From Candidatus Bathyarchaeota archaeon (GTDB lineage: Archaea > Thermoproteota > Bathyarchaeia > Bathyarchaeales > Bathycorpusculaceae), in the NCBI GenBank assembly GCA_963717465.1, contig OY970340.1:1632001-1696000 (forward strand): 64,000 nucleotides of DNA, written 5' to 3'. Numbering within the stretch: the first letter of the stretch is position 1; the number at the start of each line of letters is the position of its first letter. The notes under the pieces were generated by a model, which worked only from the letters and a program-made list of their open reading frames with translations, ran no database searches and was not told where the DNA came from. Below are positions 13,070 to 64,000 of this stretch, one piece after another. The position numbers and the translations under genes are program-made.

Positions 13070-15469
13070 TCATTCTTTGGAGGATATTGGTTGAACTTCT
13101 TGTTTTGCGTTGATCTTTTGCATGAGGTTTTTTCTGACGTCTTCTTTTAGTGGTCCCATTTTCGAAATTCTATTGTTGAATACTTCAAAGACGTTTATTA
13201 TTTTGTTGTATTCTGGGAGCGTAGTCGAATACGATATTATCCGCATCGGTTCGATATTGTAAGCGCTTAAATCTTTTTTCAACTGGTTGGTATATTCCCG
13301 CAAGGCGTCTTCGCTGAACACGCCGCCATGATCTTCAAACATTATAACACCGTCAGCTCCATAAGCAAAAGCGTGCAACAAATGCTTCAAGCCTATACGT
13401 CCTGTACTGGGAACTCTTATTATTTTGACGTTTGCTGGGTAAGTTGCTCGGCTTTGTCCTGCTAAATCTGCAGCTCCATAGGCGATTTCTTTTTCAAGAA
13501 ACGCTACTAGCTTTGGTGTCATGCTGTAATCGCTGACACTGTGAATTTGAGCCATTAACTGTTCTTCAGTTGAATTATTGAGGTTGATTGCTTCTTTTGG
13601 ACACTTTGGCACGCAGATTCCGCATCCAATGCACGAAATAGAATTGACGGTTATGGCTTTCGATGACTTTTCAATCGCTGAGACTGGGCATACTTTTATG
13701 CATATTTCGCAGCTGTCACATTTCTTCGGATCTATGTATGCCACTTCTGGGGAGATTGAGATTTCACCTTTGCCCAAAAACGTAGCTACTCTTGACGCAA
13801 CTGCCGACGATTCTAAGGTTGTCTCTCTGATATCTTTTGGACTTACAGCGCACCCGGCGATGAATATTCCTTCTCGTTGACTATCAACTGGTTTTAGCTT
13901 GTAGTGCTTTTCTACGAGGAACTCGTCTGATCCAATCTGAATTCCAAGTTTTTTAGCTAATTCCTGAGCACCTGAAGCTGGAGTAATTCCGAGAACTAGC
14001 ACAACTAAATCGAAAACTCCTTCAATGGGGCATCCGACAAGGGTATCCTCTGCTTTTACTAATAAATCGCCGCTCTTTAATGGTAAAATTTCGGCTACAC
14101 GCCCTCTAACAAATTTTACGTTATGCTCTCTGGCTTTAGCGTAAAACTCTTCGTATCCCTTTCCATCAGCTCTTATATCAGTGTAGAAAATCCATGGTTC
14201 AGCGTCTGGCACTACTTTTTGAACCAACATTGCTTGTTTAATTGAAGCCATGCAGCCAATCTTACAGCAGTGCTCCACGCCGCCAAGCTCTTTATTCGTC
14301 ATTCGGCTGCCTACGCAAAGGACAAAAGCAACTTTCTTTGCGACTTTCTTATCTGAAGGCCTTTTCATCTCCTGACCTATAAGTCGTTCAAGCTGCAAGT
14401 TGGTTATTACATCTGGATTTAAGCCGAACTTGTATTCCCCAAATTTCTTTGCATCAACAAGTTCAAAGCCTGTTGAAGAAATTACAGAACCAACATCAAG
14501 TTCAATATTTTCTTCCTTTTGGTTAAAATCAATGGCTTTGCCTTTGCAGAATTTCTCGCAGAGTCTGCAAACTCCTTTTGTTAAATATAGACAATGCTCT
14601 TTATCGATTACATACGTCTTTGGGACTGCTTGCTTAAAAGGTGTATAAATGGCTTTTCGAGTTGACAAATTAGCATCAAATTCGCTTGGTACATTGACTG
14701 GGCAAACCTTTTCGCATTCGCCGCATGCGGTACAATTGGCGGCATTAACAAATCTTGGGCTTTTCTTGATTAAAGCTCGGTAGTTTCCTGGAGATCCCTC
14801 AACGGCTTGTACTTCTGCCATTGGAATAATTTTGATGTTAGGATGTTGCGCAACGCTTACCATTTTTGGCGTCAATATGCATTGTGAGCAGTCCAAGGTT
14901 GGGAAAGTTTTGCTTAGTTGAGCCATGTGTCCGCCTATGCTTGGACTTCGCTCCACTAAGTATACTTGATAACCTTTATCTGCAATCTCTATCGAAGTGG
15001 TAATGCCTGCAATTCCGCCTCCAATGACAAGAGTGTCTTTTTTCACTGGAATTGCCTTGGCAGTTAAGGGTTCCAAGTAGCGAGCTCTCGATACTGCGCT
15101 GCGAATTATGTCGATGGCTTTAGAGGTTGCTTCGTCTTTGTTTCCGTGAACCCAACTGCATTGTTCTCTGATATTTGCCATTTCGAGCAAGTAAGGGTTT
15201 AAACCTGCTGCTTCTACGACACGTCTAAATGTGTCCAGATGCATTCGCGGCGAGCAGGATGCTACAACGATTCTGTTTAATCCGTTTTCCTTAATGCCTT
15301 TTTTGATCATTTCTTGCCCTGGGTCACTGCATACGTATTCGTATTTTTCTACGACTTTTACGCCGTCAAGTTTTGAAACAGCTTCTTTTACCTTGGCAAC
15401 GTCAACTGTGTCGCTTATGTTTCCTCCACAGTGGCAAATATAAACTCCGATCTTTGCTTTTTCAGTCAA
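13070..15469 (-). CDS. hdrA: heterodisulfide reductase subunit A fused to a degenerate MvhD domain
   Basis: [33 protein letters not shown] motif, TFPTLDC, ferredoxin motifs; C-terminal YGAADLAG...YPANVKIIRV...GADGV. Confidence 0.93.
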   Translation of the reverse strand: MTEKAKIGVYICHCGGNISDTVDVAKVKEAVSKLDGVKVVEKYEYVCSDPGQEMIKKGIKENGLNRIVVASCSPRMHLDTFRRVVEAAGLNPYLLEMANIREQCSWVHGNKDEATSKAIDIIRSAVSRARYLEPLTAKAIPVKKDTLVIGGGIAGITTSIEIADKGYQVYLVERSPSIGGHMAQLSKTFPTLDCSQCILTPKMVSVAQHPNIKIIPMAEVQAVEGSPGNYRALIKKSPRFVNAANCTACGECEKVCPVNVPSEFDANLSTRKAIYTPFKQAVPKTYVIDKEHCLYLTKGVCRLCEKFCKGKAIDFNQKEENIELDVGSVISSTGFELVDAKKFGEYKFGLNPDVITNLQLERLIGQEMKRPSDKKVAKKVAFVLCVGSRMTNKELGGVEHCCKIGCMASIKQAMLVQKVVPDAEPWIFYTDIRADGKGYEEFYAKAREHNVKFVRGRVAEILPLKSGDLLVKAEDTLVGCPIEGVFDLVVLVLGITPASGAQELAKKLGIQIGSDEFLVEKHYKLKPVDSQREGIFIAGCAVSPKDIRETTLESSAVASRVATFLGKGEISISPEVAYIDPKKCDSCEICIKVCPVSAIEKSSKAITVNSISCIGCGICVPKCPKEAINLNNSTEEQLMAQIHSVSDYSMTPKLVAFLEKEIAYGAADLAGQSRATYPANVKIIRVPSTGRIGLKHLLHAFAYGADGVIMFEDHGGVFSEDALREYTNQLKKDLSAYNIEPMRIISYSTTLPEYNKIINVFEVFNNRISKMGPLKEDVRKNLMQKINAKQEVQPISSKE

Positions 15470-15484
15470 TTTTCGTTACATCTC

Positions 15485-16372
15485 TTATGCTTTAAGTTTG
15501 TTAACGAGAGTTTGAACTTGGGTTTTATTTTTGTCCAGGCCGATCTCTGCTGGGGTCATACCGAGCGCTAAACCCAAGAGTTGCGTTAGAAAGACTACTG
15601 GTAACTCGTATTTAGTTTTCAACTTTTGATTTATTTCAACTTGTCCGTTATCAAATTGGAGATGACAGAAGGCACATGGTGTGACTACACAATCTGCTCC
15701 AGCACTAAGCATGTTGTCAATCTTTGACCTGGTGAAATCAAGGGCAACATCAATGGCGTCAGATCTCACTCCGCCGCCTGCGCCGCAGCATTGCATTTTA
15801 TCCTTGTAATCAACGCTTTCTGCACCCAATGTTCTAACAAAATCATCGATTATAGTTGGGTTTTCAGCTGAACCGTGTTTTCTCACCGCGCTTGGCTTTA
15901 AAAAGTGGCAACCATAGTGGACTGCAACTTTGATGTTGCTAAGTGGGACTTTTACCTTTTCTTTAATAGCTGAGTAGCCAACATCTTCGTTTAAAACTTC
16001 AATTATGTGTTTTACTTTTGTTGTTCCTTTATATTCTCTATTGACTTCTTTGAAGATATCATTCACCTGATGCTTCAATTCGTCATTTTCCATTAAGAGG
16101 CAGTTAGTCTCCTGAAGTGACCCGTAGCAGCCATTACAGGTAACTGCTATATCCTTATTCATTTGCTCGGCGATAGTAAGGTTTCTTGCACTAATCACAG
16201 CCCATGTTAACATGTCAAAAGAGCCGAAGACTCCTGGAGCAGGGCAGCATGAAGCCCCCTTCATATCCAGTAATTCTATTCCAAAAACTCCAAGTGTTTT
16301 TTTGGTTGCTAATTCAATTCCAGGGTAACGGTTGGGCGCAATACATCCAAGAAAGTAAGCATACTGTTTCAT
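15485..16372 (-). CDS. hdrB: CoB-CoM heterodisulfide reductase subunit B
   Basis: GCIAPNRYPG, SCCPAPG, CNGC, HYGCH, CCGAGGG, CAFC. Confidence 0.95.
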   Translation of the reverse strand: MKQYAYFLGCIAPNRYPGIELATKKTLGVFGIELLDMKGASCCPAPGVFGSFDMLTWAVISARNLTIAEQMNKDIAVTCNGCYGSLQETNCLLMENDELKHQVNDIFKEVNREYKGTTKVKHIIEVLNEDVGYSAIKEKVKVPLSNIKVAVHYGCHFLKPSAVRKHGSAENPTIIDDFVRTLGAESVDYKDKMQCCGAGGGVRSDAIDVALDFTRSKIDNMLSAGADCVVTPCAFCHLQFDNGQVEINQKLKTKYELPVVFLTQLLGLALGMTPAEIGLDKNKTQVQTLVNKLKA

Positions 16373-17196: not shown

Positions 17197-18222
17197 ATGG
17201 ATTTAAAAGAAAGGTTTCTTGCTTCAACGAAGCGTAAACCAGTTGATAGAGTTCCTTGTGCAAGTCCCCTTCAAACGGCAACAGTAGATTTAATGAATAA
17301 ATGTGGCGCGAGTTGGCCTGAAGCTTTTAGAAATGCAGAGAAAATGGCTACTCTTTCCGCTGCAGCTTACGAAATAGGCGGAATTGAAAGTGTTCGAGTG
17401 CCTTTTGACTTATCCGTCGAGGCAGAAACGTTGGGCTGCAAAATTAAACCAGGCTTGGTCAACGTCCAGCCGCAAACATTAGAAGGCATAATTAATAGTC
17501 CCGATGATGTTGGCAAAGTGAAGGTTCCTGATCCGAAAACAGCTGAACCTATGGCAACAGTCTTAAAAGCAGTAAAGATTCTCAAAGGAAAGTATCCCGA
17601 CAAAGTACCTATTATCGGTGCAGCTTTGGGTCCCATGACGCTAGCCGGACACGTTAATGGTATAGAAAAATTTTTGGTGGCCTTGAGAAAGCAACAGGAT
17701 TTTGCCAGATCAATTCTTGATTTTGCAACGCAAGTTTCAACAACTTATTCGCTTGCGCTAGTTGAAGCTGGCGCTGACGTCATAAGTTTAATAGATCCCT
17801 CAGCAACTGGGGAAATATTAGGGCCAAGGTTCGAAAAAGAGTTCGCTACTCCATACACCAAGAAAGTGGTTGAGCAAATACACAAAGCAGGAGTACCTGT
17901 AATCTTACATATCTGCGGCAAATCTACCATTATTTGGGATTCTATGGTTGAGACTGGATCAGACATGCTCAGCATCAGTGAGCAAGTTGACATGGCTGAA
18001 GCAAAACAAAAAATAGGCAGCAAAGTTGCTCTTGCTGGCAACATTAATCCGATTCAGACTTTGCAGTTTGGGACACCGCAAGACGTGGAGAAAGCAGTCA
18101 AAGAATGCATAGAAAAGGGCGTAGATAACCTTTGCCCAGGTTGCGGATTCACACCGAATACATCACTAGAAAACATGAAGAAAATGACAGATGCGTGCAG
18201 AGCTGTAGGAGCCAAACGATAA
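17197..18222 (+). CDS. mtaA: methylcobamide:CoM methyltransferase (MtaA/MtbA family)
   Basis: URO-D fold; VRVPFD..VEAETLG, Zn motif LHICG...PGCG. Confidence 0.85.
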   Translation: MDLKERFLASTKRKPVDRVPCASPLQTATVDLMNKCGASWPEAFRNAEKMATLSAAAYEIGGIESVRVPFDLSVEAETLGCKIKPGLVNVQPQTLEGIINSPDDVGKVKVPDPKTAEPMATVLKAVKILKGKYPDKVPIIGAALGPMTLAGHVNGIEKFLVALRKQQDFARSILDFATQVSTTYSLALVEAGADVISLIDPSATGEILGPRFEKEFATPYTKKVVEQIHKAGVPVILHICGKSTIIWDSMVETGSDMLSISEQVDMAEAKQKIGSKVALAGNINPIQTLQFGTPQDVEKAVKECIEKGVDNLCPGCGFTPNTSLENMKKMTDACRAVGAKR

Positions 18223-18469
18223 ATTCAAAGGCATGCAGCTTAAACAGCCCTCTCTTTTATTTTAGCGGTATGTAACTGCTCAGAAATGTTTATAATAAAT
18301 TTTCGCAAATTTCGTAATTTTCTAACCCTTTCTCAACATTTTTGCCAGCATGTAGTGTGTATTATTCGTCAATAAACGAAATACATACCTTTCCATGCAC
18401 GTTTAGTGTTTTGGCACTCTATAAGGTAGGTCCGTGAGCGTCGCGCAGCCTTTCGGCAGTGCGCGCTAA

Positions 18470-18660
18470 ATTGCGTCTTGTTAAGTTCAATAGTTGCTCA
18501 AAGAGTTTATTATAACCTTGAAGGATGTATTCAATGACTTCTCCTTTATCATTAAAGACAAGCTCACAGACTTGAACGTCTACATTAAGCATTCTAAAAG
18601 TTTAAGACAATTATCAAAACTATTTTGGAAGATATCTTGAACGATTTGTTTTTCTTCCAT
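18470..18660 (-). pseudogene. frameshifted PAS-domain-like remnant
   Basis: ATG 18660 MEEKQIVQ...; after a shift CELVFNDKGEVIEYILQGYNKLFEQLLNLTR resembles a PAS N-terminus. Confidence 0.35.
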
Positions 18661-18680
18661 AAATCCCAATAATTAATTAT

Positions 18681-18722
18681 TTCTGATTAGGTACTTTATT
18701 AATTCTGATTAGGTATTTTATT
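18681..18722. repeat. 20-bp tandem direct repeat
   Basis: TTCTGATTAGGTACTTTATT (18681) and TTCTGATTAGGTATTTTATT (18703). Confidence 0.8.
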
Positions 18723-19165
18723 TTTTAGGTTTAATCTAATTAACATGACAAAACCACAAGCAGAGATGGCTTGAATTGACCTTGTTTTAGTCCAAGCGAA
18801 TGCAAAAACTGGCAGGAAGAAGAGGTGAAGCATTCCACTTTGGATTAAATGTCAATTCAACCAGCCTCATATTTTTGGATTGGGTTTAGTGCGCACTCCA
18901 AATCAATTGTCTTTTGCGTTATGAAAATATCGTAAGCTGCTTTTACGCATTGATTGGCTGCTTCAAAAATATTTTGATTTGAACTATGATTAAATGGTTC
19001 TGTAGGTATTAATCCCTAAATATGTCTTGGGAGAAATGAGTCTTGAAATCGACATTATTGGATTTTGACCTTTTTGGTTTAAGTCGGTAGGCCTAGCGCT
19101 GCTACAATATATTTAATTAATGTTTACTTAAAGGCTTAAATATCAGTAAAATTTCCAAAGCATTT

Positions 19166-20215
19166 ATGACAACTCCATATGATCGATTGATTAATGTTTT
19201 GAGTGGTAAAAAAGCTGAAGTTGATCGACTTCCCGTTATAAACCCTGTCTCCACTTACACATATGATTCTATGAAAGCATATGACGCCTATTGGCCAGCT
19301 GCCCATAGAGATCCTGAAAAAATGGCAAAGCTAGCCGCAGGGCTCCATAGACTTGCAGGCTTAGGTAACGTGACAGTTCCATTTGAATTGACCTTCGAGG
19401 CTGAGATTCTCGGTGCCCCAGTGCAGTTTTTCGAAGACAAGATAAAATGGCCCACTGTTAAGGGTTTTATTGCTCATGAAGTTTCTGACCTTAAATTTCC
19501 CAAGGATATATCAACGGCTGGAAGAATACCAGTTGTTACTAATGCTATTAAAATATTAAAAAGGGAATTCGAAGGCAAAGTCCCAATAATTGCGTACATA
19601 AATTGTCCATTCACCAGCATCAGTAGCTACTTAGTTGAACCAGTCGAATTCCTGAAATCTCTAAGACGTGAACCCGAGAAGGTTCGCGAATTCTACAAAG
19701 CATCCTACCCATTTTATGGTGAAATTGCAAACGCGTTTAAGGAAGCCGGCGCCGACATAATCACATATAGGGAAGAAGGTGTCTCACTTGACAACATCTC
19801 AATCAAGGATTTCGACGAATATGTTAAGCCATATCTCACTAAACTGATTGGTCTCACAAAGTCGCCGAAAATTCTCCACACCTGCGGTTTATGCATAAGC
19901 CGTGAAAAGGAAATTATTGGAAGGATGATAGAATGCGGTGCCGATGCAATTTCCATTGAGGAAAGGACACCAATGAAAGCAGCAAGAGAATTCGCCGACA
20001 AGGCTAAACCAGGTTATCCTATATGCGGAAATGTTGCTCCTTTTTCGGTTATACATAATGGTCCTATTGAAAGAATCAGATTAGCCGTTAAAAAAGCAAT
20101 TGATGAAGGAGTGGATATAGTATCACCTGGCTGCGACTTTTACTTGGAGACCCCGACTGAGCATGTGAAGGCTTTCGTCAATGCCGCTATTGAGTTTGGT
20201 ACACAAACAAGGTGA
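19166..20215 (+). CDS. MtaA/CmuA (URO-D) family methyltransferase, paralogue 2
   Basis: WPAAHRDPEKMAKL, VPFE..FEAEILGA, LHTCG, PGCD. Confidence 0.85.
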   Translation: MTTPYDRLINVLSGKKAEVDRLPVINPVSTYTYDSMKAYDAYWPAAHRDPEKMAKLAAGLHRLAGLGNVTVPFELTFEAEILGAPVQFFEDKIKWPTVKGFIAHEVSDLKFPKDISTAGRIPVVTNAIKILKREFEGKVPIIAYINCPFTSISSYLVEPVEFLKSLRREPEKVREFYKASYPFYGEIANAFKEAGADIITYREEGVSLDNISIKDFDEYVKPYLTKLIGLTKSPKILHTCGLCISREKEIIGRMIECGADAISIEERTPMKAAREFADKAKPGYPICGNVAPFSVIHNGPIERIRLAVKKAIDEGVDIVSPGCDFYLETPTEHVKAFVNAAIEFGTQTR

Positions 20216-20628
20216 GGAAGTCTGTCAACTTCGTTAGGGAAATCTAAAGGTAAATTTTCGAGGAAACGTTAAGGATTATAATCGGCAAACCTCTTCTTTC
20301 GGCACTTGCCAATAAGCTTGGCATGTCGAAAAGTCTTTATTTTTTCTTTACATTTTTTATATGTGTACATTACTTAGAAAAGCATGTGCTCTGTAACTTA
20401 CCTTTCAACTATTATCCTTATTGTGAAAGCGTTCGCCATGAAGAAAGAGTTGATGAATTAATCGAAAAATAAACAGTCACTTTAAGAATTTTTTACAACA
20501 TTAAGAGATAAAGGTAATACTTAACGAATTTGACAGAAATCGGCAGGTTATGGGCAAATAAAGAAGAAGTTTACAAAAAAGTAAAAATATAGGTGTTTTT
20601 TGCTAAAAAACAACAGGTGAACAAAGAC

Positions 20629-21589
20629 ATGTTTAAATTTAAATCTCAACAAAAAATTTTCAAGATAGGAAATGTGAGTATAGGTGGACAGCCGGGAGAA
20701 CTCCCGAAGGTGCTGTTCGGAACCATTTTTTATGGCAAACATAAAATCGTAGAGGACCAGAAAAAAGGCATTTTCGACAGGAAAAAGGCAGAGGAACTGA
20801 TAAATAAACAAGAAGAGCTTTCTGATCTTACTGGTAACCCTTGCGGGTTAGATGTTGTATGCATCTCGCTTGAGTCAGCTTGTAAGTTCATCGATTTTGT
20901 TGCAGAGACAACTGATTGTCCGATTTCAGCAGATATTTGGACGCCCGAGATTAAAATTAAAGTTCTAAATCATATTGCTGAGGTAGGTCTTTCAGATCGA
21001 ATCATTTACAACAGTGTGATGTCAGTTCCGTTGCCCAGCGAAGATGAACTTAATGCTATTAGAGAGTCAAAGGTTAAGTCAGCTGTAATTCTATGTTACA
21101 ACACAAAGGATCGTACGACCAAAGGTGTTTTGTCTTTGCTCAGGGGCACTGAAGAGCAAAAGGGCTTGCTGGACATAGCTCAGGGAGCAGGAATAGAAAA
21201 GCCATTAGTTGACGCAACCATCTTTACATACATTCCAAGCATAGGCGTTGGAGCTAGAGCATGTTACTTAGTAAAAGATGAATTCGGTCTTCCAGTGGGC
21301 GGTTCACCTGGAAACGCAACTACTGTTTGGAAAGAACCAAAAAAGTGGGGACAAGATATCTTTAAAGCGTGTGAAGCAGCGGCAGAAGTTGTACCTTTAG
21401 CCTTAGGCGCAGATTACCTGTTTTATGGACCAGTTGAGTCGGCCCCTTGGGTATTTCCAGCCTGCGCTGGAGTTGACGCAATGATTGCCAGCAGCAGCTA
21501 AAACTGAATTCGGAATAAAAACCTTGACGAAAGAGCATCCACTGTATAAATTATTCCCCGAAATCGTTAAAAAGTTAGACATTGAATAA
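20629..21589 (+). CDS. MtrH/MtgA-family corrinoid:pterin methyltransferase (+1 frameshift near 21490)
   Basis: MFKF...IGGQPGELP..LFGTIFY..HKIV.D...G.FD, IIYNS, GADYLFYGPVE; the shifted tail contains HPLYKLF; AGGTGA before ATG 20629. Confidence 0.88.
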
Positions 21590-21609
21590 GAATAAAGAGA
21601 TGATGCAAT

Positions 21610-22650
21610 ATGGTTGAATTGACTTCTTATGACAGAGTCATGGCTGTTTTAAACGGCAAGAAAAGTTCTGTTGATAGGCTTCCTTGCATAAACTCTGTTA
21701 GTGTAAGCACGATTGATTTCATGAAGTCTTATGATGCTTATTGGCCAGCCGCACACAAAGACCCTGTGAAAATGGCCAAACTTGGCTCGGCGGCTCACAG
21801 ATTATGTGGTCTTGATAACGTGACAGTACCATTTTGTATGACAGTTGAAGCGGAGGCACTTGGAGCGGTGATTAATTTTCACGAAGACACAATAAAGTGG
21901 CCCTCAATTAAAGAATTTCACGTGAACGAGCCTTCAGATCTTAAATTTCCCAATGACGTATCAACAGCTGGAAGAGTTCCAGTCGTCATTGAAGCAATCA
22001 AAATATTGAAAAAAGAATTTGAAGGCAAAGTTCCCGTAAATGCTTACATAACACCACCATTCACGAGCATCAGCAGTTACCTAGTGGACAGCGTTACTTT
22101 CTTGAAGTGGCTGAGAGTTTCGCCAGAAAAGGTTCATCAATTCGTAAAAAGCGCTAACGATTTTTACGCAAAAATAGCAAAATTATACGAAGAAGCTGGG
22201 GCTGACATAATTACTCTTCATGAGATGGGTGCTTCTACAGATAACATATCACCGAGACATTTTGATCAATTCGTTAAGCCTTATATCGTTGACTTGATTA
22301 AGCCTTTGAAGGCAAAAACGATTTTGAACATTTGCGGAGATGCTAATATGATTGTTGACAAAATGGTTGGAACTGGTGCAAGTGCCATATCAGTAGATGA
22401 GAGAACAAAAATTAGCGGAGTTAGAAATGCAGTGGATAAGATTAAGCCAGGTTATCCTGTCGCCGGTAATTGCCCATCCTACACAGTGATACACTTAGGT
22501 ACTGTCGAAAAAATAAGGGACTATGTCAAGCAAAACATCCAAGATGGCGTTGATATTGTGGCTCCCGGTTGTGATTTTTGGCTAGAGACTTCTGTTGATC
22601 ATGTGAAGGCTTTTATTGATGCAGCCAAAGAATTTGGGAAACTACAATGA
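21610..22650 (+). CDS. MtaA/CmuA (URO-D) family methyltransferase, paralogue 3
   Basis: VPFCMTVEAEALGA, LNICG, PGCD; closely similar to 19166-20215. Confidence 0.85.
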   Translation: MVELTSYDRVMAVLNGKKSSVDRLPCINSVSVSTIDFMKSYDAYWPAAHKDPVKMAKLGSAAHRLCGLDNVTVPFCMTVEAEALGAVINFHEDTIKWPSIKEFHVNEPSDLKFPNDVSTAGRVPVVIEAIKILKKEFEGKVPVNAYITPPFTSISSYLVDSVTFLKWLRVSPEKVHQFVKSANDFYAKIAKLYEEAGADIITLHEMGASTDNISPRHFDQFVKPYIVDLIKPLKAKTILNICGDANMIVDKMVGTGASAISVDERTKISGVRNAVDKIKPGYPVAGNCPSYTVIHLGTVEKIRDYVKQNIQDGVDIVAPGCDFWLETSVDHVKAFIDAAKEFGKLQ

Positions 22651-22740
22651 TAAAGAGGAATACTTTACAAAAAAGTATTTATTCCTGCAACAAAACTCAC
22701 GAAACTTAAAGAACTAATAATTTAATGGAGAGAAAAAATA

Positions 22741-23427: not shown

Positions 23428-23441
23428 GAAGGTAGACTAGT

Positions 23442-26531: not shown

Positions 26532-26832
26532 CTGTTAATCTTCCATTGATATTTTAGACTGGCTTTGAAAATGAATAAGTACTTCCAAGAAAATAACTTT
26601 CATAGTAATTGATCATAAACCATTAACTAACCTTCACTACCACTAGTCTCAGGGTGTTCGCATTTTCGACTTACCAAATTATATATTTGAATATTTACAT
26701 AAAAGCCTTGTGATGGTGTGATGGTTTAGGGAGGTGTTCTTCATGTACATACTCCAGGTCTCAATACTTGATTCCAACTCCCTAACTAATCTCCAATAAA
26801 ATTGTCAGAAATATGGGGGATCATAAGAATAT

Positions 26833-56374: not shown

Positions 56375-57200
56375 ATGACAAATGAATGGCGTCTTTTAGA
56401 TTCTGATCTTGTTGACCCAATAACTGGCGTCGCCACGGTTGAAGCCGTCGGAATAGCTAGATCAAAAAACTTGGTTCCGAATACAATAATTTTTTGGCGA
56501 CCGAAAACACGTTTTGTTTGTTTAGGTTACTTTCAGTACGTGAAAGATGAAGTTTACCCAGAAATATGCGAAAAACTCGGTGTAAAAATTGCTCGCAGAA
56601 TTCTCGGAGGCGGAATGGGTTACGTGGATCAAAACCAACTTTTGTACGATGTTGTAATGGGTTCAGAATACAAGGTAACTCCAGTCGCTTCTAGCATTGA
56701 ACGAATGTACAAGCACGTTTTAAGCGGAGTAATTCAAGGCTTAAGAGAACTCGGTTTCACAGATGTACTTCTAATGCCTGATTATAACTCTGCTATTTGG
56801 TTAAACGGCAAGAAAGTCTCTGGAAATTGTGCAACCAGCTTAACTGGAGCCCAAATAGTTGGCGGCAGTCTGCTTGTAGATTTCGATTTCGAAATGCTCG
56901 AAAAAGTCAGTAGAAATCCATACAAGAAGTCTCAAGTCAGGCATAACTTCACTTGAAGAAGGTTTAACATGTATTAACCGAGAAAGCAAAAAAAATGTCA
57001 GCTTAAAGAATGTAAAAGTTGCCGTTAAAACTGGCTTTGAAAAAGCTCTGAACATAAAATTGAAGCATGGAGCCCTAATCAAAGAAGAAGAAGATTTAAT
57101 CAATGAATTAGAGCCAAAGTTTTCTTCCAAAGAATGGACTTATCATATGGACATCAAGAGCCAAAAATTGATGCCGTACCCAGAAACTGGAGAGACATAA
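56375..57200 (+). CDS. lplA: lipoate-protein ligase, catalytic domain (+1 frameshift near 56930)
   Basis: WRLLD, LGYFQ, RRILGGG..Y.D, NGKKVSG. Confidence 0.85.
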
Positions 57201-57211
57201 TCTGACCAAAC

Positions 57212-58244
57212 TTGACAGAATTGCAAGAAAAAGCATTCAACGATGAAGCCATATCAAAAAATGAAGCAGACGTAATTTTACATCTTTCAGATGAACGGCA
57301 AATATCAGATTTAATCAAGCTCACAAGAGCCGTGTCTGATAAGCAAAATGGGAAAAGAATTAATTTTTACTATACAGGGAATTATTTTCCTGCATTATCT
57401 GTGACAGGCAGCAATTGTGCGCTTGCGATGTAAACACTGCGAAACCAAGCTCTTGCAGCAATTACCTGCAGCCCCAACGCCGCAAAAACTATGTTGAAAT
57501 GTGCTTAAAACTAAATGAAAAGGGTGCAAAAGGTGTTCTGATCACTGGCGGCTGCTCAAGTAATGGTAAGGTTCCTATCAGTAAATTTCTCGACGCTATA
57601 TCAGAAATTAAGAAGAAGACTAGTCTTATCGTTATAGCGCACACGGGAATTCTTGAAACAAAGGAAGCCAAGGAACTTGTTAATGCAGGATTGGATGGAG
57701 CAGCTGTAGACGTTGTTGGATTGCCTGAAACAATCAACTCCGTTTATTGCGCAGAATTCAAGCCAGAAGATTATGCTAATACTCTTAGAGCTCTTGGAAA
57801 CAGCTAAGATGCCAATAATATCTCCCCATGTTTGTGTAGGGCTCAATTTTGGCAGTCTCAAACATGAATTAGACTCATTAAGCATAATTGCAAAAATTAA
57901 ACCTACAACCGTCGTGATCACCGCTATTTTGCCTCTAAGAGGAACGCCCATGGAAAAAGTAAGAGTAGCAGCCTTTGATGTTGCCAAAGTTGTTATCGCT
58001 GCTAAACTAATGTTCCCCAATATTCCAATAACTCTAGGTTGTGCAAGATCAAAAGGTCCAGATAGAGAACATATAGAGAAACTTGCAATTCACGCAGGAG
58101 TAACTAACGTAGCCGTCCCCTCCGAATCAGCCATCAAAGAAGCAGAATCTATAGGGCTCAAAATTACTAGCTTATGGTGCTTGTTGTGCGGTTCCTCCGC
58201 TTGCTTCTCTTAAACTTGAAAAATGGAGAACTGTTGACGCATGA
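57212..58244 (+). CDS. LipS1-type radical SAM sulfur-insertion enzyme (several frameshifts)
   Basis: SVTGSNCAL/CKHC, LITGG, AHTG, SPHVCVGL, LGCAR, C-terminal ACCA. Confidence 0.8.
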
Positions 58245-59254
58245 CTTCATCGCCAGTAGAAAAAATCCGGTTGTCAATTGGGACTGCAGTGATTTTAGGT
58301 CTTGAAATAGCTTTTATGAATAAGGATAATGCACCTACAACCGCCTACTTGCAGACTTATCATCCTGGCAGATGTGCAGCTAACTGCAAATTCTGTGCGC
58401 AGGCAAGAGATTCCGATGCGAAAGTTGACAAGATCGCCCGTGGATTGTACTTGCCCTACGATGCGGAGTTAGTAATTACTCGACTGAAAAAAGCAACTGA
58501 ACGCAAATTCATCAAAAGAATATGCATACAAACCATGAACTACCCTAAACTCATGGATGAACTACTCTGGCTCATCAAAAGGTTAAGCAGTGAAGTTTCA
58601 GCACCAATATCAGTATCAATTTACTCAATTTCACCCGAGAAAATCAGGCTTATAAAAGAAGCGGGCGCTCAAAAAATGATAATTCCATTGGATGCGGCGA
58701 ACGAAAAAATATTTGATGAAATTAAAGGCGCCAAAACTGCGGGTCCATACAGGTGGAAAAGCCACTTTTCAACCCTTGAAAATGCCCTTCAAATCATGGG
58801 CAAAGGAAACGTTGGAACACATCTAATGGTTGGCTTAGGCGAAACTGAAGAGGAAATAGTTAATTTGCTTGAAAAACTCGAAGAAATGGGCATCTACTGC
58901 GGACTTTTCGCTTTTACTCCCATCCCTGGAACTCAACTGGAAAAAATGGAGTCTCCTTCAATCGAGAGTTATCGCCGAATAAAACTCGCAAACTACTTAA
59001 TTTACAACAATTTAACCGAAGTCAACAAAATACGTTTTAATGAAACGGGAGAAATCGTTGATTTTGGAATAAAACAAGAAGAATTGGACAAAGCCATGGC
59101 GAAAGGTGAACCTTTCCTTACTTCAGGCTGCCCAGATTGCAACAGGCCGTTCGCAAACGAGGCTCCTGAAAAAACAATTTACAATTATCCCAATCTTCCA
59201 AAAAAAGTGGATCTTGGAAAAATCAAGAAACAGATAAAAAACAGTGGGATTTGA
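58241..59254 (+). CDS. LipS2-type radical SAM sulfur-insertion enzyme
   Basis: RLSIGTA, PTTAYL, CAANCKFCAQAR, LFAFTP, TSGCPDCNRP. Confidence 0.85.
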   Translation: MTSSPVEKIRLSIGTAVILGLEIAFMNKDNAPTTAYLQTYHPGRCAANCKFCAQARDSDAKVDKIARGLYLPYDAELVITRLKKATERKFIKRICIQTMNYPKLMDELLWLIKRLSSEVSAPISVSIYSISPEKIRLIKEAGAQKMIIPLDAANEKIFDEIKGAKTAGPYRWKSHFSTLENALQIMGKGNVGTHLMVGLGETEEEIVNLLEKLEEMGIYCGLFAFTPIPGTQLEKMESPSIESYRRIKLANYLIYNNLTEVNKIRFNETGEIVDFGIKQEELDKAMAKGEPFLTSGCPDCNRPFANEAPEKTIYNYPNLPKKVDLGKIKKQIKNSGI

Positions 59255-59258
59255 AGAA

Positions 59259-60204
59259 ATGAGCCAAGAAGATTTTGTTCCAGTGGCTGGAGGTTTTGGA
59301 GTAAAAATCCATGCTCCAAGCGATGGCTGCATTGCATTCTGCAATAGTCCTTTCCCAGCGCACCGAGAATCCAGCGCTTTAGATATTTATCCAGCTGACG
59401 CAAAATTCGGAGATGAAGTTTCTTGTCCAGTAAACGGAATCGTCAAAGAGACACGGAAGTTTTCTTCACCCAATCTTTTTCCTGACAAGCCACCACTTGA
59501 TGAGTACTTGATTCTTATTGAGTCTGCTGATAATCCTGAGGTATACGTAAAAATCATTCATGCTCATCCGAAAGTTAGAAAAGGTGAAAAGGTTAACGTC
59601 GGGGATACTTTGGCGGTGTTAGTGCGCAGCGGTTACTGGGCTTATTCGGTTGACCCTCACATCCATGTGGAACTTCGCAATCCAAAAGATGCAATTAGAG
59701 CTTTAGGGTCCTATCCTCTGGAAGTATTAAACTCTCCAGAAAAAAAATGCGAAATAAGAGAACACGATAGAGAGTGATGTCTTAGGCGTTGTTGTTAAAG
59801 TGGAAAAGCGTTATGCAATTGTTCGCCCAAATCCTGAGAATTGGGTTAACAATCGGCAATTTTTCAGGTTTAGCAGCAAACTGTTGGAAACTGTGTTGGC
59901 ATTCTTGACGGAGGCTTACCATTTATGGGTTACGGAGGCGTTATAGGAACTGAAAAAGGCACGATTGCAGATGCTCCAGTAATCTTAAGTGGGAAAACTA
60001 TCGGAAGAATAACTACAAGCTTGGAGGGGCTGTCTAAATTTGAAACAGTTCCCTTCAAAGTCAAAGCAGGCACCTGTTCGGATGACTTGGGGATTTCTCT
60101 TAAGGTTTTTGTTGGGAAAACAACGAGAAATAAAACTTGTTCCAGCAAAAAACAATCAAATCAACGTTAAAGAGGACGATGTTGTAACAATAAAAAAGGA
60201 TTAA
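59259..60204 (+). CDS. conserved protein with M23-peptidase-like motifs (several frameshifts)
   Basis: AH....ALDIY, CPVNG.V, PHIHVE.R, GILDGGLP. Confidence 0.6.
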
Positions 60205-60256
60205 AATATGAATAAAACAATCAATGCACAACTTTCAGTTATTGGAGTGAATTTGT

Positions 60257-60704
60257 TTGGTTAAAATTGAAGGATTCAGTTTCCCGGAAAAACTCTATTA
60301 TAGCGAAGATCACCTTTGGATAAAACTTAAGGGAAATGAGGCGACAGTTGGCTTTACAAGTCTTGGAGAGGCCTTATGCAAAGAAATTGTGCATGTCGAT
60401 TTGCCTTTTGAAGGTGACGAAAAAAAGCAAGAGTGAAGAAATCGGTTCTTTCGAAAGCATTAAAGCAGTGTTTCGAATCCATGCGCCATTAAGCGGAAAA
60501 GTTACAAAAACAAACAATGACTTGTATCAGCAACCTGATTTGATAAACGAAGCTCCGTATGGAAAAGGTTGGTTATTTGTAATGGCTGCAACCGATCCGA
60601 AAGGTGAATTAAAGAAGCTAATGGATGCAAAAAAAGCAACTGCATACTACAAAGTTATTATCGATGAGGAACGAGCAAAATTCGGCGAGTACGATGAACC
60701 CTGA
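60257..60704 (+). CDS. gcvH: glycine-cleavage H-like lipoyl carrier protein (+1 frameshift near 60431)
   Basis: LYYSEDHLWI, ATVGFT, lipoyl-Lys in ESIKAV, APLSGKV, INEAPYGKGW. Confidence 0.9.
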
Positions 60705-60721
60705 ATACCTAAACTTTAGCT

Positions 60722-61752
60722 ATGGAGTTCTCTGAATTTTTGGAAAAGCAAGAATTAAATAATATTTTAGATAAGGCCCTTACCAGACCAATTACTGGCC
60801 AAGAAGCGCAAAAACTGTTATTGATTGATAAAGTTCAGCTTCCAGAATTATTATCGACATCACGGATTGTTTCAGACAAAAAAACCGACAAAACGCTGAC
60901 TGTTTATCACAAAGCGTTTCAACCCGTATCAATAACAGGACGAACTTGTGCTTTAAACTGTAAACATTGCAGTCAACATTATTTAGAGCACATGATTCCT
61001 GCAAGTAATCCTGAAAAACTGCTTACAAATCTGCAAGAATCTTAAGGCAAATCACGCGCCAGGTGTTCTTTTAAGTGGAGGTAGCAGAAAAGATGGAACC
61101 GTTCCATTAGACGAATTTGCGCATACAATAAGTTTGATCAAGAAAGAAACAGGCTTACTAATTTCTGCTCACACAGGTCCAATAAATTATGAAAATGCCA
61201 AAATCCTAGTTGAAGCCGGATTAGATATTGCTTTGCTTGATGTTGTAGGTTCAGCAGAAACCACAAAAAGCGTTTACGGCGTCAGTATAACTCCGGAGGA
61301 TTACCAAAAAACTTTAATGCTCTAAATGCTGCTGGTATCCCAAATATTTCTCCTCATATCTGTGTTGGGCTTCATTTTGGGAAACTTCTTGGAGAAGCAA
61401 AAGCTTTAGAGTTTAGTTTCACATGCCAAAGTGTCTACAATAGCCATAGTGGTGCTAATTCCAACAAAGGAAACGGCTATGGCTGAAGTTGATCCTTCTT
61501 CACCTGAGGACATAGCCAAAGTCATTGCAATCGCCAACTTGATGTTTCCAAAAACGCCTGTTTCGCTTGGTTGTGTGCGGCCTGGGAAAACTTTTCGTGC
61601 AAAGATTGATGAATTGGCAATCAAAGCTGGCATAGGAAAATTGGCGATTCCAACTGGAAATTCGCTTGAAGATTGCCCGAAGCGAAGGACTTAAAATTAA
61701 ATCTTTTGAGGATGTAATGTGCTGTTCAGTTGATGAATCTCAAATGAAATGA
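60722..61752 (+). CDS. second LipS1-type radical SAM enzyme (several frameshifts)
   Basis: SITGRTCALNCKHC, LLSGG, SAHTG, SPHICVGL, LGCVRP, MCCS. Confidence 0.8.
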
Positions 61753-61869
61753 GTCTCTGCAACATTCTGATTTGAAATAGAGGAGTAGTGCCATCTTAAA
61801 CTAACTAAAAATTAAATATTTGGCTAATCAACCATTATAAAGCCTTAAAATCTGTTGAGTGTGTAATGC

Positions 61870-62926
61870 TTGGATAAATGGAGATTTATTGATTTAGACA
61901 CTACTGATCTTCCTTCTGTTCACGCTATAGAAGAAGCTATAGCTGAAGAAAAAATCGGAAATACACTATTACTATGGCGAGTAAACAAACCCGCTTTAAC
62001 GCATAGGCTATTTTCAGAACGTTTATGAGGAAATTGATGTTGAAAAAGCAAAAGAACTTGGCGTCCCATTTATAAGACGCATGGGCGGAGGCGGAACAGG
62101 TTATCTTACGCCAACTGTTTTAGCATATTCAATAATAGTCAGCGAAAAAAGCAATGTTATGCCTAAAAATGTTGAAGAAACATACGGTGTCATATGTAAC
62201 GGGGTGACGCTTGGTCTTAAGGAATTAGGGCTTGATGCAGTTCACGTGCCAATAAATGATGTTTTAATTGGCGGGAAAAAATTCTCTGGAAGTTCTCAGC
62301 ATAGAAGCTATGGAATGATTATCCAGCATGGATTCATAACTACAGAATTAGACCTTCCCACATTGGCCAAGTTGATTAAAGCTCCTAAAGAAAAGCTTCA
62401 GGATAAAGGCATAACCAAAATAGAAGATAGGATAACTTGGATTAACCGGGAAATTCAAAAAGCTGGAAGAGAACCGTTAAGTTTAGAGCAGATAAAGAAA
62501 GCGATTAGAACAGGATTTGAAAAAGCGCTTAAAGTCACTTTCCAGGATAGCAAACTTACGAAGCAGGAATTGGAAGCTGCAAAGAATTTTAAAGAAAGAT
62601 TTGAACTTGAAACATGGAACATCAATCCTAGACTATTCAAACGAGTCAACGCAGCATCAATTATTAAAGCACCTAAAGGCGTTATCAGAGTAAACGCGTA
62701 CGTTGCCAACGGTAAGATACTGGAGATAATGATAACCGGTGACTACATGATGCATCCTGTTGAAGCCATATCATCTCTTGAAGCTATGCTTACAGGAGCT
62801 AAAACTGATGAGCAAACAATACGAAAAATAGTGAATGAATTTTACGCTAAAGAGACAGTAATTACTCCTGGGGCTTCTCCGGATGATTTTGTAAAAGCAA
62901 TAATGAAGGCAAAGAAACCTTCCTGA
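61870..62926 (+). CDS. lplA: lipoate-protein ligase with C-terminal accessory domain (frameshifted 5' part)
   Basis: KWRFID, IGYFQ, RRMGGGGT, NDVLIGGKKFSGS, KAPKGVIRV...ITGDY. Confidence 0.85.
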
Positions 62927-63037
62927 ATTTTAAGAAGAACTTTAAAAATGATCATGCCTTTTATAAAAAAACTTTTAGAAGATACCTTAAAGACCTTTTT
63001 ACATAAAACTGTTAATTGGATGGGAGAAGCAACATGA

Positions 63038-64000
63038 ATGAGAAACCCACGAATAGGCGTTTATATTTGTCACTGTGGCTTGAACATTGCTGCCACAGTT
63101 GATGTTAAATCAGTTGCAGAATATGCAAAGAATCTCCCTAATGTTGTTGTATCCAAAGATTACAAGTATACGTGTTCTGACCCTGGCCAGGAAATGATAA
63201 AGAAAGATATCAAAGAGCAAAAGCTTAACAGAATTATTGTTGCAGCTTGCTCTCCAAGGATGCATGAGCCTACTTATCGAAAGCTTTTGGAAGAATCAGG
63301 ATTAAACCCGTACTTGTTTGAAATGGTCAATATCCGAGAACAAGTTTCTTGGGTTCACATGAAGGATCCTGAAAAAGCCACTGAAAAAGCTAAAGACTTA
63401 ATCAGAATGGCAGTTGCTAAAGCTGCCTTATTGCAGCCTTTAGAAGAACAAGAAGTTCCTGTATTAAAATCGGTACTTATAATCGGCGGCGGTATTGCTG
63501 GTATTCAAGCAGCCCTTGATTTAGCTGATCAAGATTACAAAGTTACCTTAGTGGAAAAGAAGCCAACCCTCGGAGGTCATATGGCTCAGCTTGACAAGAC
63601 TTTCCCGACAATGGACTGCTCAATCTGTATTTTCGGTCCTAAAATGGTTGACGTCTACAAACACCCAAACGTTACACTTCTAGTTAACAGTGAAGTGCAA
63701 GATATCTCTGGTGCAGCGGGTAACTTCCATGCAAAAGTCTTGAAGAAAGCAAGATATGTTGACGAGAAGAAATGTGTCGGTTGCGGCGTATGCGCAACAA
63801 AATGTCCAATTAAGACTCCTAACGAGTTCGACAAGAATCTTGGTATGCGCAAAGCAATCTACATCCCATTCCCGCAAGGAGTTCCAGCTAAATACACGAT
63901 TGATAAAGAACACTGCTTGTTCTTCACTAAAGGCGTCTGTAAAGTTTGCGAGAAAATGTGTGAAGCCAAAGCAATCGACTATACTCAAGAAGACCAAGTT
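63038..64000 (+). CDS. hdrA: second heterodisulfide reductase subunit A (runs off the window end)
   Basis: [66 protein letters not shown]; absent from the ORF track because it has no stop. Confidence 0.93.

Follow-up and report, generated by a model that had tools for sequence, protein, structure and literature searches.

Is a set of genes for methane metabolism a true part of a Bathyarchaeia chromosome, from where did it come, and could it support methane formation? These questions are raised by the window analysed here, a stretch of 64,000 nucleotides in the 3.05 Mb closed contig OY970340.1 of the genome under study (G000). The original prediction placed mcrBDCGA, atwA, methanogenesis markers 2, 3, 5, 6, 7, 8, 15 and 17, nifB, hdrABC, methyltransferases and coenzyme M synthesis genes next to cdvB-cdvA-cdvB-cdvC, tRNA-Lys, mtnP and apt. 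Searches with Pfam and NCBIfam recovered the former at or near the predicted places, and the cluster was found on the same contig as the latter (Pfam, NCBIfam, ARAGORN).

Host backbone and borders of the island

The operon cdvB-cdvA-cdvB-cdvC (1234..4743, plus strand; NCBIfam and Pfam) comprises cdvB (1234-1899), cdvA (1916-2635), a second cdvB (2823-3566) and cdvC (3577-4743), each assigned as best match to a Cdv model with a score under the NCBIfam cut-off. A tRNA-Lys (UUU; 5911-5988, minus strand; ARAGORN) and the plus-strand genes mtnP (9621-10406) and apt (10420-10965; both NCBIfam) follow. The DNA of the cdv operon is 70-76% and that of mtnP-apt (9621..10965) 67-75% identical to the DNA of all five congeners compared. 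CdvC shares 87-88% identity with P0153, P0167, P0172, P0218 and P0234, all named Candidatus Bathyarchaeia archaeon by the NCBI submitters, in agreement with the Bathyarchaeia-like host that had been proposed. By these comparisons, the cdvBABC operon, mtnP and apt are host backbone. A close second copy of cdvA, cdvC, mtnP or apt was not found elsewhere in the genome. The chromosome is rearranged in this region: genes adjacent in 5/5 congeners are located about 147 kb apart in G000.

The first genes without a congener counterpart are hdrA2 with an MvhD-like end, hdrB and hdrC (13070-16950, minus strand; NCBIfam, with HdrB at 439 and HdrC at 200 bits, both over cut-off), for which five congeners gave only weak DNA matches at the level of paralogs. 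Between 20 and 60 kb of the window, hardly any DNA match to five congeners was present. The block extends beyond the window to the window-equivalent position of about 70-72 kb and thereby adds two hdrA copies, hdrCB and mvhD: a second hdrA2 starts at 63038 (63038..64000 in the window, plus strand) and is followed past the window by genes for hydrogenase-like subunits, hdrC, hdrB, a third hdrA and mvhD, and then by host-like mvhG and mvhA. Host-like DNA is found again from 72.4 kb (window-equivalent). Neither an integrase nor a transposase nor an att-like repeat was detected at the island ends. A 17-base inverted repeat at 12116 and 69815, considered as a mark of the island, was at chance level; an equally long match was present in 15 of 296 control regions.

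A separate cfbBCDEA-hem block with genes for coenzyme F430 and tetrapyrrole precursors is situated 55 kb upstream of the window among ordinary housekeeping genes. Among 120 genus genomes, G000 was the only one in which CfbD exceeded the cut-off. Judged from this search, the cfb-hem block is, like the island, unique to G000 within the genus, and both are insertions relative to five congeners.

The mcr operon

The plus-strand operon has the gene order mcrBDCGA. The gene mcrB (28046-29387) matches TIGR03257 in two frames with an extra base near 28713, mcrD (29400-29847) matches TIGR03260 in two frames with an extra base near 29744, and mcrC (29876-30545) matches TIGR03264 in two frames, through halves that cover 1-97 and 83-194, with a break near 30.2 kb. 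The model TIGR03256 matches mcrA (31406-33078) in three frames, in pieces of 62, 684 and 184 bits, with extra bases near 31588 and 32748. Solely mcrG (30597-31379; TIGR03259, 375 bits versus a cut-off of 172) is intact in a single open frame. The cluster had been called complete, and all genes are indeed present, but the five +1 frame breaks, one each in mcrB, mcrD and mcrC and two in mcrA, had been overlooked.

In two trees McrA was located inside the group II (TACK-type) clade, with values of 98 and 100/100. Together with P0001, a metagenomic, intact protein of 556 residues and 90.4% identity, it constitutes a separate deep branch within group II that is nested in no named lineage; the identity to named sequences is 76% at most. 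The best named matches of McrA, McrB, McrG, Mmp15, A2 and Mmp2 belong to group II TACK lineages (70-74% for McrA, 70-75% for McrG), and the closest named McrG proteins are those of Methanomethylicia (74-75%). Ten of eleven residues that are catalytic or modified in the enzyme of M. marburgensis are retained. Because the predicted McrA groups with methane-type group II enzymes and keeps the catalytic residues, it is of the methane type and not an alkyl-CoM reductase, as the original prediction had it.

In 2015, Evans et al. are said to have described alkyl-CoM reductases of the BA1/BA2 type in Baizomonadales Bathyarchaeia. These resemble the case of G000 in that an mcr-like operon, thought to be horizontally acquired, is present in Bathyarchaeia, and they differ in that the G000 McrA is methane-type, falls into the clade of canonical enzymes and keeps the catalytic residues. 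The genome G334, from the order to which G000 also belongs, has a McrG with 51% identity that may be of the BA1/BA2 kind, a type discussed in two further studies (PMC10321748; PMC12694404). The view that Bathyarchaeia possess alkyl-type homologues only, on which the original prediction relied, is outdated: a single mcr cluster of the canonical group II type is described for the Jinwuousiales MAG 3300028193_21 (Hou et al. 2023, PMC10321748). As in G000, this is a methane-type group II MCR in Bathyarchaeia recognized from sequence alone; unlike G000, the MAG is assigned to a different order, and its McrA is reported to be the sister of Nezhaarchaeia (PMC12700198). In our trees a 'Bathyarchaeota' McrA (L051) grouped with Nezhaarchaeia, away from the G000 McrA; our guess is that it represents the Jinwuousiales lineage.

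Frame breaks

Throughout the genome, frame breaks interrupt 38 of 174 conserved orthologs. A total of 57 events was counted in 172 kb of conserved genes, 49 of them +1, and the same kind of +1 error occurs inside and outside the island. Because conserved genes are broken alike and contigs of a close relative from peat lack the extra base at three of the sites, the five breaks in mcrB, mcrD, mcrC and mcrA are almost certainly assembly errors and not gene decay. These contigs, derived from short reads and 90-97% identical, omit exactly one base at each of the three break sites covered among the matches listed (mcrB 28713, mcrD 29744 and the first mcrA site at 31588/31589); the base at 28713 is omitted in contigs from two runs. 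A real island whose mcr operon is being lost through true mutations, in an organism that no longer makes or uses methane, would agree with the density of breaks, five in 5.03 kb where the genome-wide rate predicts 1.67 (Poisson P = 0.028). Events are clumped elsewhere in the genome too, and such decay is very improbable given the shared +1 single-base kind and the absence of in-frame stops and large deletions from the mcr operon. Genome-wide breakage at this rate, if real, would be incompatible with life. The similarity of McrA to the intact P0001 and its retained residues likewise speak against decay, as do the accessory genes checked, which are all open save for similar breaks in lipS1 and hdrA2.

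Accessory genes

An MtaA-family methylcobamide:CoM methyltransferase is encoded at 17197..18222 (plus strand; PRK06252 of NCBIfam, 370 bits versus a cut-off of 244). In the peat relative this gene directly adjoins mcrB: one contig joins 18275 to 27981 and skips a variable module of 9.7 kb (18276..27980, plus strand). TATA-like 12-base direct repeats are located at 18288 and 27989. The module encodes a second and a third MtaA-family protein (at 19166 and 21610), an MtrH-like protein (20593-21501), a corrinoid protein (22741-23427) and a RACo activase with a 2Fe-2S end (23442-25358), all on the plus strand, in addition to TrmB-type and winged-helix regulators. Paralogs of the module with 76-82% amino-acid identity are present at 750,317-753,984 of G000. 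The arrangement shares with the Mto O-demethylase system of Methermicoccus shengliensis, composed of MtoB1/B2, MtoC, MtoA and MtoD (PMC8630106), an MtrH-like methyltransferase, a corrinoid protein with a mass of about 22-25 kDa, an activase that carries a 2Fe-2S domain at its N-terminus and a pair of methyltransferase paralogs with 59% mutual identity. Unlike the MtvB-related MtoB of 47-48 kDa, the paralogs of G000 have 346-349 residues and match the MtaA/CmuA family. A substrate-specific first methyltransferase was not identified in the window.

The genes mmp8, mmp7, a NifB-like radical-SAM gene, mmp17, mmp15, mmp5, mmp6 and mmp3 (38241-45277, minus strand; NCBIfam, seven markers over cut-off) are followed by atwA for component A2 (45449-47044; TIGR03269, 761 bits versus a cut-off of 517), a DUF2117 gene (47143-48540; PF09890) and mmp2 (48626-49624, minus strand; TIGR03267). 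The predicted nifB and marker 2 genes were found, but both score under cut-off (317 versus 343.65 and 275 versus 365 bits), and the NifB-like gene covers profile positions 6-278 of 441. The ATP-driven activation complex of MCR in Methanococcus maripaludis is described as consisting of McrC, Mmp7, Mmp17, Mmp3, A2 and DUF2098, and NifB is proposed to build the [8Fe-9S-C] clusters of this complex (PMC12176620). Homologues of McrC, Mmp7, Mmp17, Mmp3 and A2 are all present in G000, as known from the genes, and the position of the NifB-like gene between mmp7 and mmp17 fits this proposal. DUF2098 was not found in the 27 further open frames scanned, out of 57 unannotated ones of at least 55 residues in the window. 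Coenzyme M synthesis is represented by cysteate synthase (52221-53393; TIGR03844, 445 bits) and a fused sulfopyruvate decarboxylase (53478-54602; TIGR03845 and TIGR03846 both over cut-off), and lipoylation by lplA, lipS1, lipS2 and gcvH (56375..62926; NCBIfam), which are partly duplicated and frame-broken; all are on the plus strand.

Origin of the island

Jointly, the observations are probably best explained by a genuine island of about 57-60 kb in the chromosome of a closed Bathyarchaeia genome, which represents an old horizontal gain and encodes the kit of a methyl-reducing methanogen, with frame breaks due to assembly errors. The full gene set was most likely gained from another archaeon. 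The donor would have been an unsampled group II lineage, and the gain long enough ago for the island composition to match the host. A published case of an old horizontal gain that made such a methyl-reducing methanogen was not found in the literature.

Two other origins are each improbable. A long-read assembler could have joined the mcr block of a co-sampled group II methanogen into the Bathyarchaeia contig. The many broken orthologs lower the trust in the joins of this assembly, which has a marker completeness of 88% for a closed contig; the rearranged region and the junctions point the same way, as no read or contig was seen across either border between host-like and island DNA and cover was thin at 12.3-13.0 kb. 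McrG was found in none of 119 congeners (73 of the 120 genus genomes are at least 90% complete) and, in a search with the family model, in none of 200 family genomes of 70 genera; among 400 other genomes of the order, one contained a copy, the divergent one of G334. This distribution also bears out that the host lies outside the known mcr-bearing lineages. Composition gave no sign of a chimera: the tetranucleotide distance between the island and the remaining genome amounts to 0.0049 (median of 51 windows, 0.0045), compared with 0.012-0.014 for a congener and 0.020-0.056 for every sampled mcr locus of other group II lineages. Host-like genes on both sides within one contig, the cfb block among housekeeping genes, the module paralogs elsewhere in the genome, the lack of duplicated host genes and like +1 errors in and out of the island argue against a chimera as well. 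The native composition would equally suit inheritance of mcr and kit from an mcr-bearing ancestor of the Thermoproteota, followed by loss in the other sampled members of genus, family and order. The separate deep branch of the G000 and P0001 McrA outside all named lineages and the marker 15 and marker 5 paralogs kept in the host outside the island are consistent with such a relic, and vertical descent was favoured for the mcr of Jinwuousiales in the text of Hou et al. (PMC10321748). Against inheritance stand the very many independent losses required by the distribution of McrG, the grouping of the other canonical 'Bathyarchaeota' McrA apart from that of G000, and the insertion of island and cfb block relative to the congeners.

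Proposed metabolism

With the island as a horizontal gain, methyl groups would pass from the corrinoid protein via MtaA to coenzyme M, methane would be released by MCR, and HdrABC with MvhADG would regenerate the thiols with H2. The island would supply MCR, the parts of the activation machine (McrC, Mmp7, Mmp17, Mmp3 and A2, with the NifB-like gene among them), further markers, the methylcobamide:CoM methyltransferase, heterodisulfide reductase and coenzyme M synthesis, and the separate cfbBCDEA block would provide F430. The membrane Mtr complex would take no part; MtrE, D, C, B and A of a Methanobacterium locus had no tblastn match in the genome, and MtrH alone matched. Energy might be conserved by a complex-I-like membrane complex, and three NuoL/M/N-like genes are present at 1.201-1.206 Mb.

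This scheme is close to that of the methyl-reducing Thermoproteota Methanosuratincolia/Methanomethylicia, Methanonezhaarchaeia and Korarchaeia, whose group II MCR shares the McrA clade with G000 and whose scheme likewise includes MtaA and Hdr/Mvh without membrane Mtr. Unlike these methanogens, G000 is the only mcr carrier of its Bathyarchaeia genus, its McrA is a separate deep branch, the gene order is mcrBDCGA and nearly the whole kit is concentrated in a single block; a search of the genome for MtaB gave no match. We regard it as unlikely that the genes serve anaerobic methane oxidation or a methyl dismutation through the MtrH-like enzyme into the H4MPT pathway. The joint location of MtrH-like, corrinoid protein and MtaA-family genes just upstream of mcrB could connect coenzyme M with H4MPT in the absence of membrane Mtr, and the MtrH-like MtoA of Methermicoccus is described as using tetrahydrofolate, an analogue of H4MPT, and not coenzyme M as the methyl acceptor (PMC8630106). 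The group II enzymes reported at work to date, however, are methanogenic (PMC12700198; 10.1101/2025.10.16.682713), and the three hdrA copies with mvhD and host mvhGA at the island end fit H2-driven heterodisulfide reduction. On the evidence of its genes, one species of a large genus otherwise without methane genes may thus be an unrecognised methane producer.

Results

Gene content of the region was established from a six-frame ORF listing combined with Pfam and NCBIfam scans, and ARAGORN was used for tRNA genes. The left part of the window contains a cdvB-cdvA-cdvB-cdvC operon (1234-4743), a tRNA-Lys gene (5911-5988, ARAGORN), an integrase-like fragment of 154 residues (7040-7504) whose match is confined to the end of the phage-integrase domain, a PadR gene together with a second cdvA-like gene, and mtnP and apt (9621-10965), followed by genes for an Lrp-type regulator and a thioredoxin. 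The second cdvA-like gene (8534-9304; PF18822, 41 bits) lies apart from the cdv operon and adjoins the PadR gene, a neighbourhood shared by the congeners. The mcr-bearing island begins at 13070 with hdrA2-hdrB-hdrC on the minus strand. It continues with an MtaA-family gene (17197-18222; 370 bits against a cut-off of 244) and with a methyl-transfer module (19166-27100) of two MtaA-family genes, an MtrH-like gene, a corrinoid protein gene, a RACo-type activase gene with an N-terminal 2Fe-2S domain, and regulators. The genes mcrB, D, C, G and A follow at 28046-33078. DUF6951, OsmC-like, NifX-like and radical-SAM genes separate mcrA from the minus-strand group mmp8-mmp7-nifB-like-mmp17-mmp15-mmp5-mmp6-mmp3 (38241-45277), which is faced by atwA (45449-47044). 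Beyond atwA are a DUF2117 gene, mmp2 and then ABC, GTPase and FeS genes, the genes for cysteate synthase and a fused sulfopyruvate decarboxylase, ComDE (52221-54602; both products above cut-off), a sulfonate-binding protein gene, lipoylation genes and the first part of a second hdrA2, which extends past the window. Past the window, genes for hydrogenase-like subunits, hdrC, hdrB, a third hdrA, mvhD and then mvhG and mvhA were found; MvhG and MvhA scored below their curated cut-offs. The ORF, Pfam, NCBIfam and ARAGORN results bore out the gene list of the original prediction. A DUF2098 gene was not matched in the 27 further ORFs scanned of the 57 unannotated ones in the window. The lipoylation set (56375-62926) is partly duplicated, in the order lplA, lipS1, lipS2, gcvH, the start of lipS1 and lplA again, and contains several frame breaks.

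McrA, McrB and McrG were each matched by their own equivalog model. McrG scored 375 bits (cut-off 172), the two halves of McrB 289 and 341 bits (cut-off 516) and the three pieces of McrA 62, 684 and 184 bits (cut-off 768); the single McrA and McrB pieces stay below the cut-off because of frame breaks. Named matches of the middle McrA piece (385 residues) were Methanomethylicia (70-74%), Nezhaarchaeota (70%) and a 'Bathyarchaeota' MAG (68%), and the protein collection added an 'Archaeoglobi' MAG (76%) and P0001, an intact metagenomic McrA of 556 residues encoded on a 46 kb contig (90%). A quick tree of 80 rows placed McrA on a long branch within the group II clade (support 98). A second tree, built from 40 rows with a more careful method, recovered group II with support 100/100, and the McrA of the genome under study (G000) formed with P0001 a separate branch (100/100) outside the Korarchaeum/Archaeoglobi, Methylarchaceae, Nezhaarchaeia/'Bathyarchaeota' and Methanomethylicia groups, the base of group II being unresolved. 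The best matches of McrB, McrG, Mmp15, A2 and Mmp2 were likewise in group II loci.

Both trees left out alkyl-type sequences, and the alkyl type was therefore excluded through sequence identity and residues. Ten of the 11 McrA positions that we take to be catalytic or modified in the Methanothermobacter marburgensis enzyme are conserved; Cys452 is replaced by Met, as it is in P0001. McrA is 66.8% identical to that of M. marburgensis (548 columns) and 64-68% identical to those of many Methanobacteriaceae. Alkyl-coenzyme M reductases (group III) are described as having an McrA less than about 60% similar to canonical enzymes (PMC12694404), and on this measure the present enzyme falls outside them. 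Judged from its sequence, G000 is an mcr-encoding member of the Thermoproteota with a group II enzyme.

In this assembly mcrB, mcrD and mcrC are each spread over two reading frames and mcrA over three, with five +1 breaks in all, and decay of the operon to a pseudogene had to be considered. The operon exceeds the general error rate (five events against 1.67 expected, Poisson P = 0.028). Clumping of frame breaks was also seen outside the mcr operon, where a single gene can have as many as five. No residues are missing relative to P0001 at the two mcrA breaks, each of which is a single-base insertion outside a homopolymer; the mcrB break resembles them. In a wider survey, 288 ORFs from 400 kb of the closed congener G003 were placed on G000 by tblastn, and best matches of at least 55% identity were counted as orthologs (n = 174). 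Of these, 38 were split across frames. The 57 events, of which 49 were +1, fell in 172 kb of conserved coding DNA, about one every 3 kb. Disruption on that scale, in a fifth of the conserved genes, cannot be real, and the same errors account for a marker completeness of 88% in a closed contig. Contigs 85-99% like the window came from two runs of a single study, which is labelled as peat metagenome. At 28713 and at 29744 the contigs of both runs are shorter by exactly one base, and at 31588/31589 those of one run each, the check covering the mcrB, mcrD and first mcrA break sites. Given the genome-wide error pattern and the peat contigs without the extra bases, the pseudogene explanation was dropped, and the mcr frame breaks are very probably assembly errors. 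Other broken genes are lipS1 (57415-58213) and an hdrA2 at L002:3038-5440.

The contig is a single one of 3,053,889 bases (40.1% G+C), with the window at 1,632,001-1,696,000. DNA of the cdv operon and of mtnP-apt is 67-76% identical to that of five out of five congeners. In a search of 5.8 billion proteins with CdvC, the one backbone protein tested, the NCBI-named relatives at 87-88% identity, five rows among the 120 matches listed, were all Candidatus Bathyarchaeia archaeon. The best CdvC identity among 119 congeners was 90%, and none is close. The predicted Bathyarchaeia-like host is supported by CdvC. The methane-type MCR predicted for it was likewise supported by the position of McrA in group II, its identity to the M. 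marburgensis enzyme and the conserved residues.

Relatives were searched with the McrG family model or the McrG protein. None of the 119 remaining species in the genus gave a McrG match (73 of the 120 genus genomes reach a completeness of 90% or more), nor did any of 200 genomes representing 70 genera of the family; among 400 further genomes of the order there was a single match, of 51% identity. This match lies at G334:C13:146851-147615 (L107) and may belong to an alkyl-type reductase of the BA1/BA2 kind. Together with the assignment of BA1 and BA2 to the Baizomonadales by Hou et al. (PMC10321748), it prompts a mere guess that the host order is Baizomonadales (B26-1). When window DNA between 20 and 60 kb was compared with five congeners, it aligned only over two or three short, weak stretches. 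Host-like DNA stops at about 12.1 kb and restarts with mvhGA at 72,454 on the window scale continued past its end.

A search for NifD-like genes led to a second block at G000:C1:1,566,576-1,577,359 (L112:6576-17359), which comprises cfbB, cfbC, cfbD (marker 13), cfbE, cfbA, a cobA/hemD fusion, hemC, hemL, hemB and hemA. CfbD and CfbA were above cut-off, CfbB, CfbC and CfbE just below. The cfb-hem operon is predicted to make F430 from glutamyl-tRNA, and with cfbBCDEA, cysteate synthase and ComDE the genome encodes its own F430 and coenzyme M supply. Apart from one short hemB hit, the block has no DNA match in five congeners, and G000 is the only one of 120 genus genomes with CfbD above cut-off. 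Ordinary housekeeping genes separate this block from the window.

Two further regions were noted. For a third stretch (G000:C1:742001-756000; L119:1-13950), five congeners again gave no DNA match; it holds genes for a nitroreductase, an MtaA-family protein, an MttB-superfamily protein, two corrinoid proteins, an MtrH-like protein, a RACo activase and a thermosome subunit. Outside the island, G000:C1:2612175-2616516 carries paralogs of marker 15 (56%), of marker 5 (50%) and of a LipS2-like radical-SAM gene (44%), which may be the 'remnant' markers known from non-methanogens.

Discussion

The island is absent from close relatives and has conserved backbone on both flanks, and in the McrA tree G000 did not group with the other 'Bathyarchaeota' row, at odds with the placement of its host. 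Such a pattern could arise from a chimeric assembly as well as from gene uptake. The tetranucleotide distance between the island and the rest of the genome was 0.0049, compared with a median of 0.0045 and a 90th percentile of 0.0058 for 51 equal windows; the island lay 0.012-0.014 from pieces of the congener G003, and its distance from the mcr loci of other group II lineages (n = 14) was 0.020-0.056. The tetranucleotide continuity proposed as a check in the original prediction was found. By the same measure the island lacks the deviant composition expected of a horizontally acquired genomic island, its composition being native. The genes cdvA, cdvC, mtnP and apt are single, with no close second copy in G000, so the stretch is not a second strain folded into the assembly, and F430 synthesis at a separate site is hard to square with one false join. 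For the junction at 12-13 kb, no bridging contig was present among the listed matches of the public runs X1-X3, whose contigs are short.

Integration of the island as a single element was also considered. L112:1-4063 and the segment from L002:18791 to L003:1368 adjoin each other in all five congeners compared and are separated by about 147 kb in G000. The intervening stretch holds both methanogenesis blocks together with single-copy housekeeping genes (ribosomal protein, RuBisCO form III pathway, cdv). These genes rule out a single foreign insert of 147 kb, and because of them the separation is read as a large rearrangement with two embedded islands. Neither mobility genes nor attachment repeats were found at the island ends in the window scans. 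A 17-base inverted repeat occurs near both ends (12116 and, past the window on the same scale, 69815); 15 of 296 control regions matched as well, and it is probably due to chance rather than an attachment site. The integrase-like fragment lies beside tRNA-Lys, 5.5 kb to the left of the island, and an integrative element at this tRNA was rejected since the host-like mtnP-apt genes intervene; the tRNA, PadR and cdvA-like genes adjoin in congeners too. The order at 5911-8020 is tRNA-Lys, a DUF5658 gene, the integrase-like fragment and then PadR; this stretch, which does not adjoin the mcr island, may be left over from an integrated element.

The methyl-transfer module upstream of mcrB has relatives within the same genome: its MtrH-like, corrinoid and activase proteins have paralogs at 750-754 kb (82, 76 and 79% identical in amino acids, respectively), in a region that also holds an additional MtaA-family gene, an MttB-superfamily gene and a second corrinoid protein gene. 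These paralogs may be taken as a sign of integration into this genome. One contig of the peat relative joins position 18275 straight to 27981, with mtaA directly beside mcrB and the 9.7 kb module missing from that site. Direct repeats of 12 bases, TATA-box-like, flank the module at 18288 and 27989. Corrinoid methyl-transfer modules of this kind are thought to be used by Bathyarchaeia on lignin-derived methoxyl groups. The MtrH-like, corrinoid and 2Fe-2S activase components of the module are similar to those of the Methermicoccus Mto system; the two paralogous methyltransferases of the module belong to the MtaA family and are not MtvB-like (PMC8630106).

Both MCR and a methylcobamide:CoM methyltransferase of the MtaA family are encoded, and HdrABC with MvhD, MvhG and MvhA are encoded across the window and the region just past it. 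Queries for MtrE, D, C, B and A of the membrane Mtr complex from a single Methanobacterium locus (L100), confirmed by Pfam, gave no tblastn match in G000 at E ≤ 1e-5, and a search of G000 for MtaB, a substrate-specific first methyltransferase, gave no match either. One MttB-superfamily gene (about 745.5-747 kb, 62 bits) and three NuoL/M/N-like genes (1.201-1.206 Mb) were found. Corrinoid-bound methyl groups would be reduced to methane with H2, as in other group II organisms. In Methanococcus, McrC, Mmp7, Mmp17, Mmp3 and A2 form an ATP-driven activation complex, and NifB has been proposed to make its [8Fe-9S-C] clusters (PMC12176620). All five proteins are encoded here, and the position of the NifB-like gene between mmp7 and mmp17 fits the proposal on cluster synthesis.

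Alkyl-type reductases are known in the bathyarchaeal genomes BA1 and BA2 (PMC10321748, PMC12694404), which Hou et al. assign to the Baizomonadales (PMC10321748), and one canonical group II cluster has been described in a draft MAG of another order, Jinwuousiales (PMC10321748, PMC12694404). In studies on peat Bathyarchaeia, mcr was not found and methanogenesis was deemed unlikely (PMC11619403), and digester and peat members are reported without mcr (among PMC11619403, PMC11697101, PMC12700198 and preprint 10.64898/2026.04.28.721461). Group II mcrA from peat was, in the literature covered, filed throughout as Methanosuratincola-like (preprint 10.1101/2025.10.16.682713). A literature search, whose scope excluded subscription journals, supplements and the newest papers, returned no account of a canonical mcr in such a Bathyarchaeon. 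The setting is unusual: G000 is the only carrier among 120 species of its genus, the kit is nearly complete in one block with cofactor synthesis in a second, and the composition is native. What appears to be new, on the genome data, is a closed chromosome with a canonical MCR, its entire activation set and cofactor synthesis. The original prediction, a Bathyarchaeia-like archaeon carrying a methane-type MCR with most of its activation kit in one block, is supported.

A close relative of the mcr region of G000 is present in peat metagenomes. One tentative scenario, which we consider possible but rather unlikely as a whole, is that a peat-dwelling Bathyarchaeon became a methanogen by acquiring a complete kit as two or more blocks, among them one for MCR and its activation machinery and one for F430 synthesis, and then wired a copy of the corrinoid methyl-transfer module that is also present elsewhere in the genome directly upstream of mcrB; methoxylated aromatics or other methylated compounds would then be its source of methane. 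G000 offers a specific candidate for a methane-forming Bathyarchaeon and probably a clean natural example of an entire methanogenesis kit passing between lineages. The linkage of nifB with mmp7 and mmp17 in a genome backs the recent proposal on MCR activation. Any gene call or 'pseudogene' in G000 should be judged in light of the frame-error rate of its assembly. If the scenario is true, the G000 lineage could own some of the peat group II mcrA reads now filed as Methanosuratincola-like.
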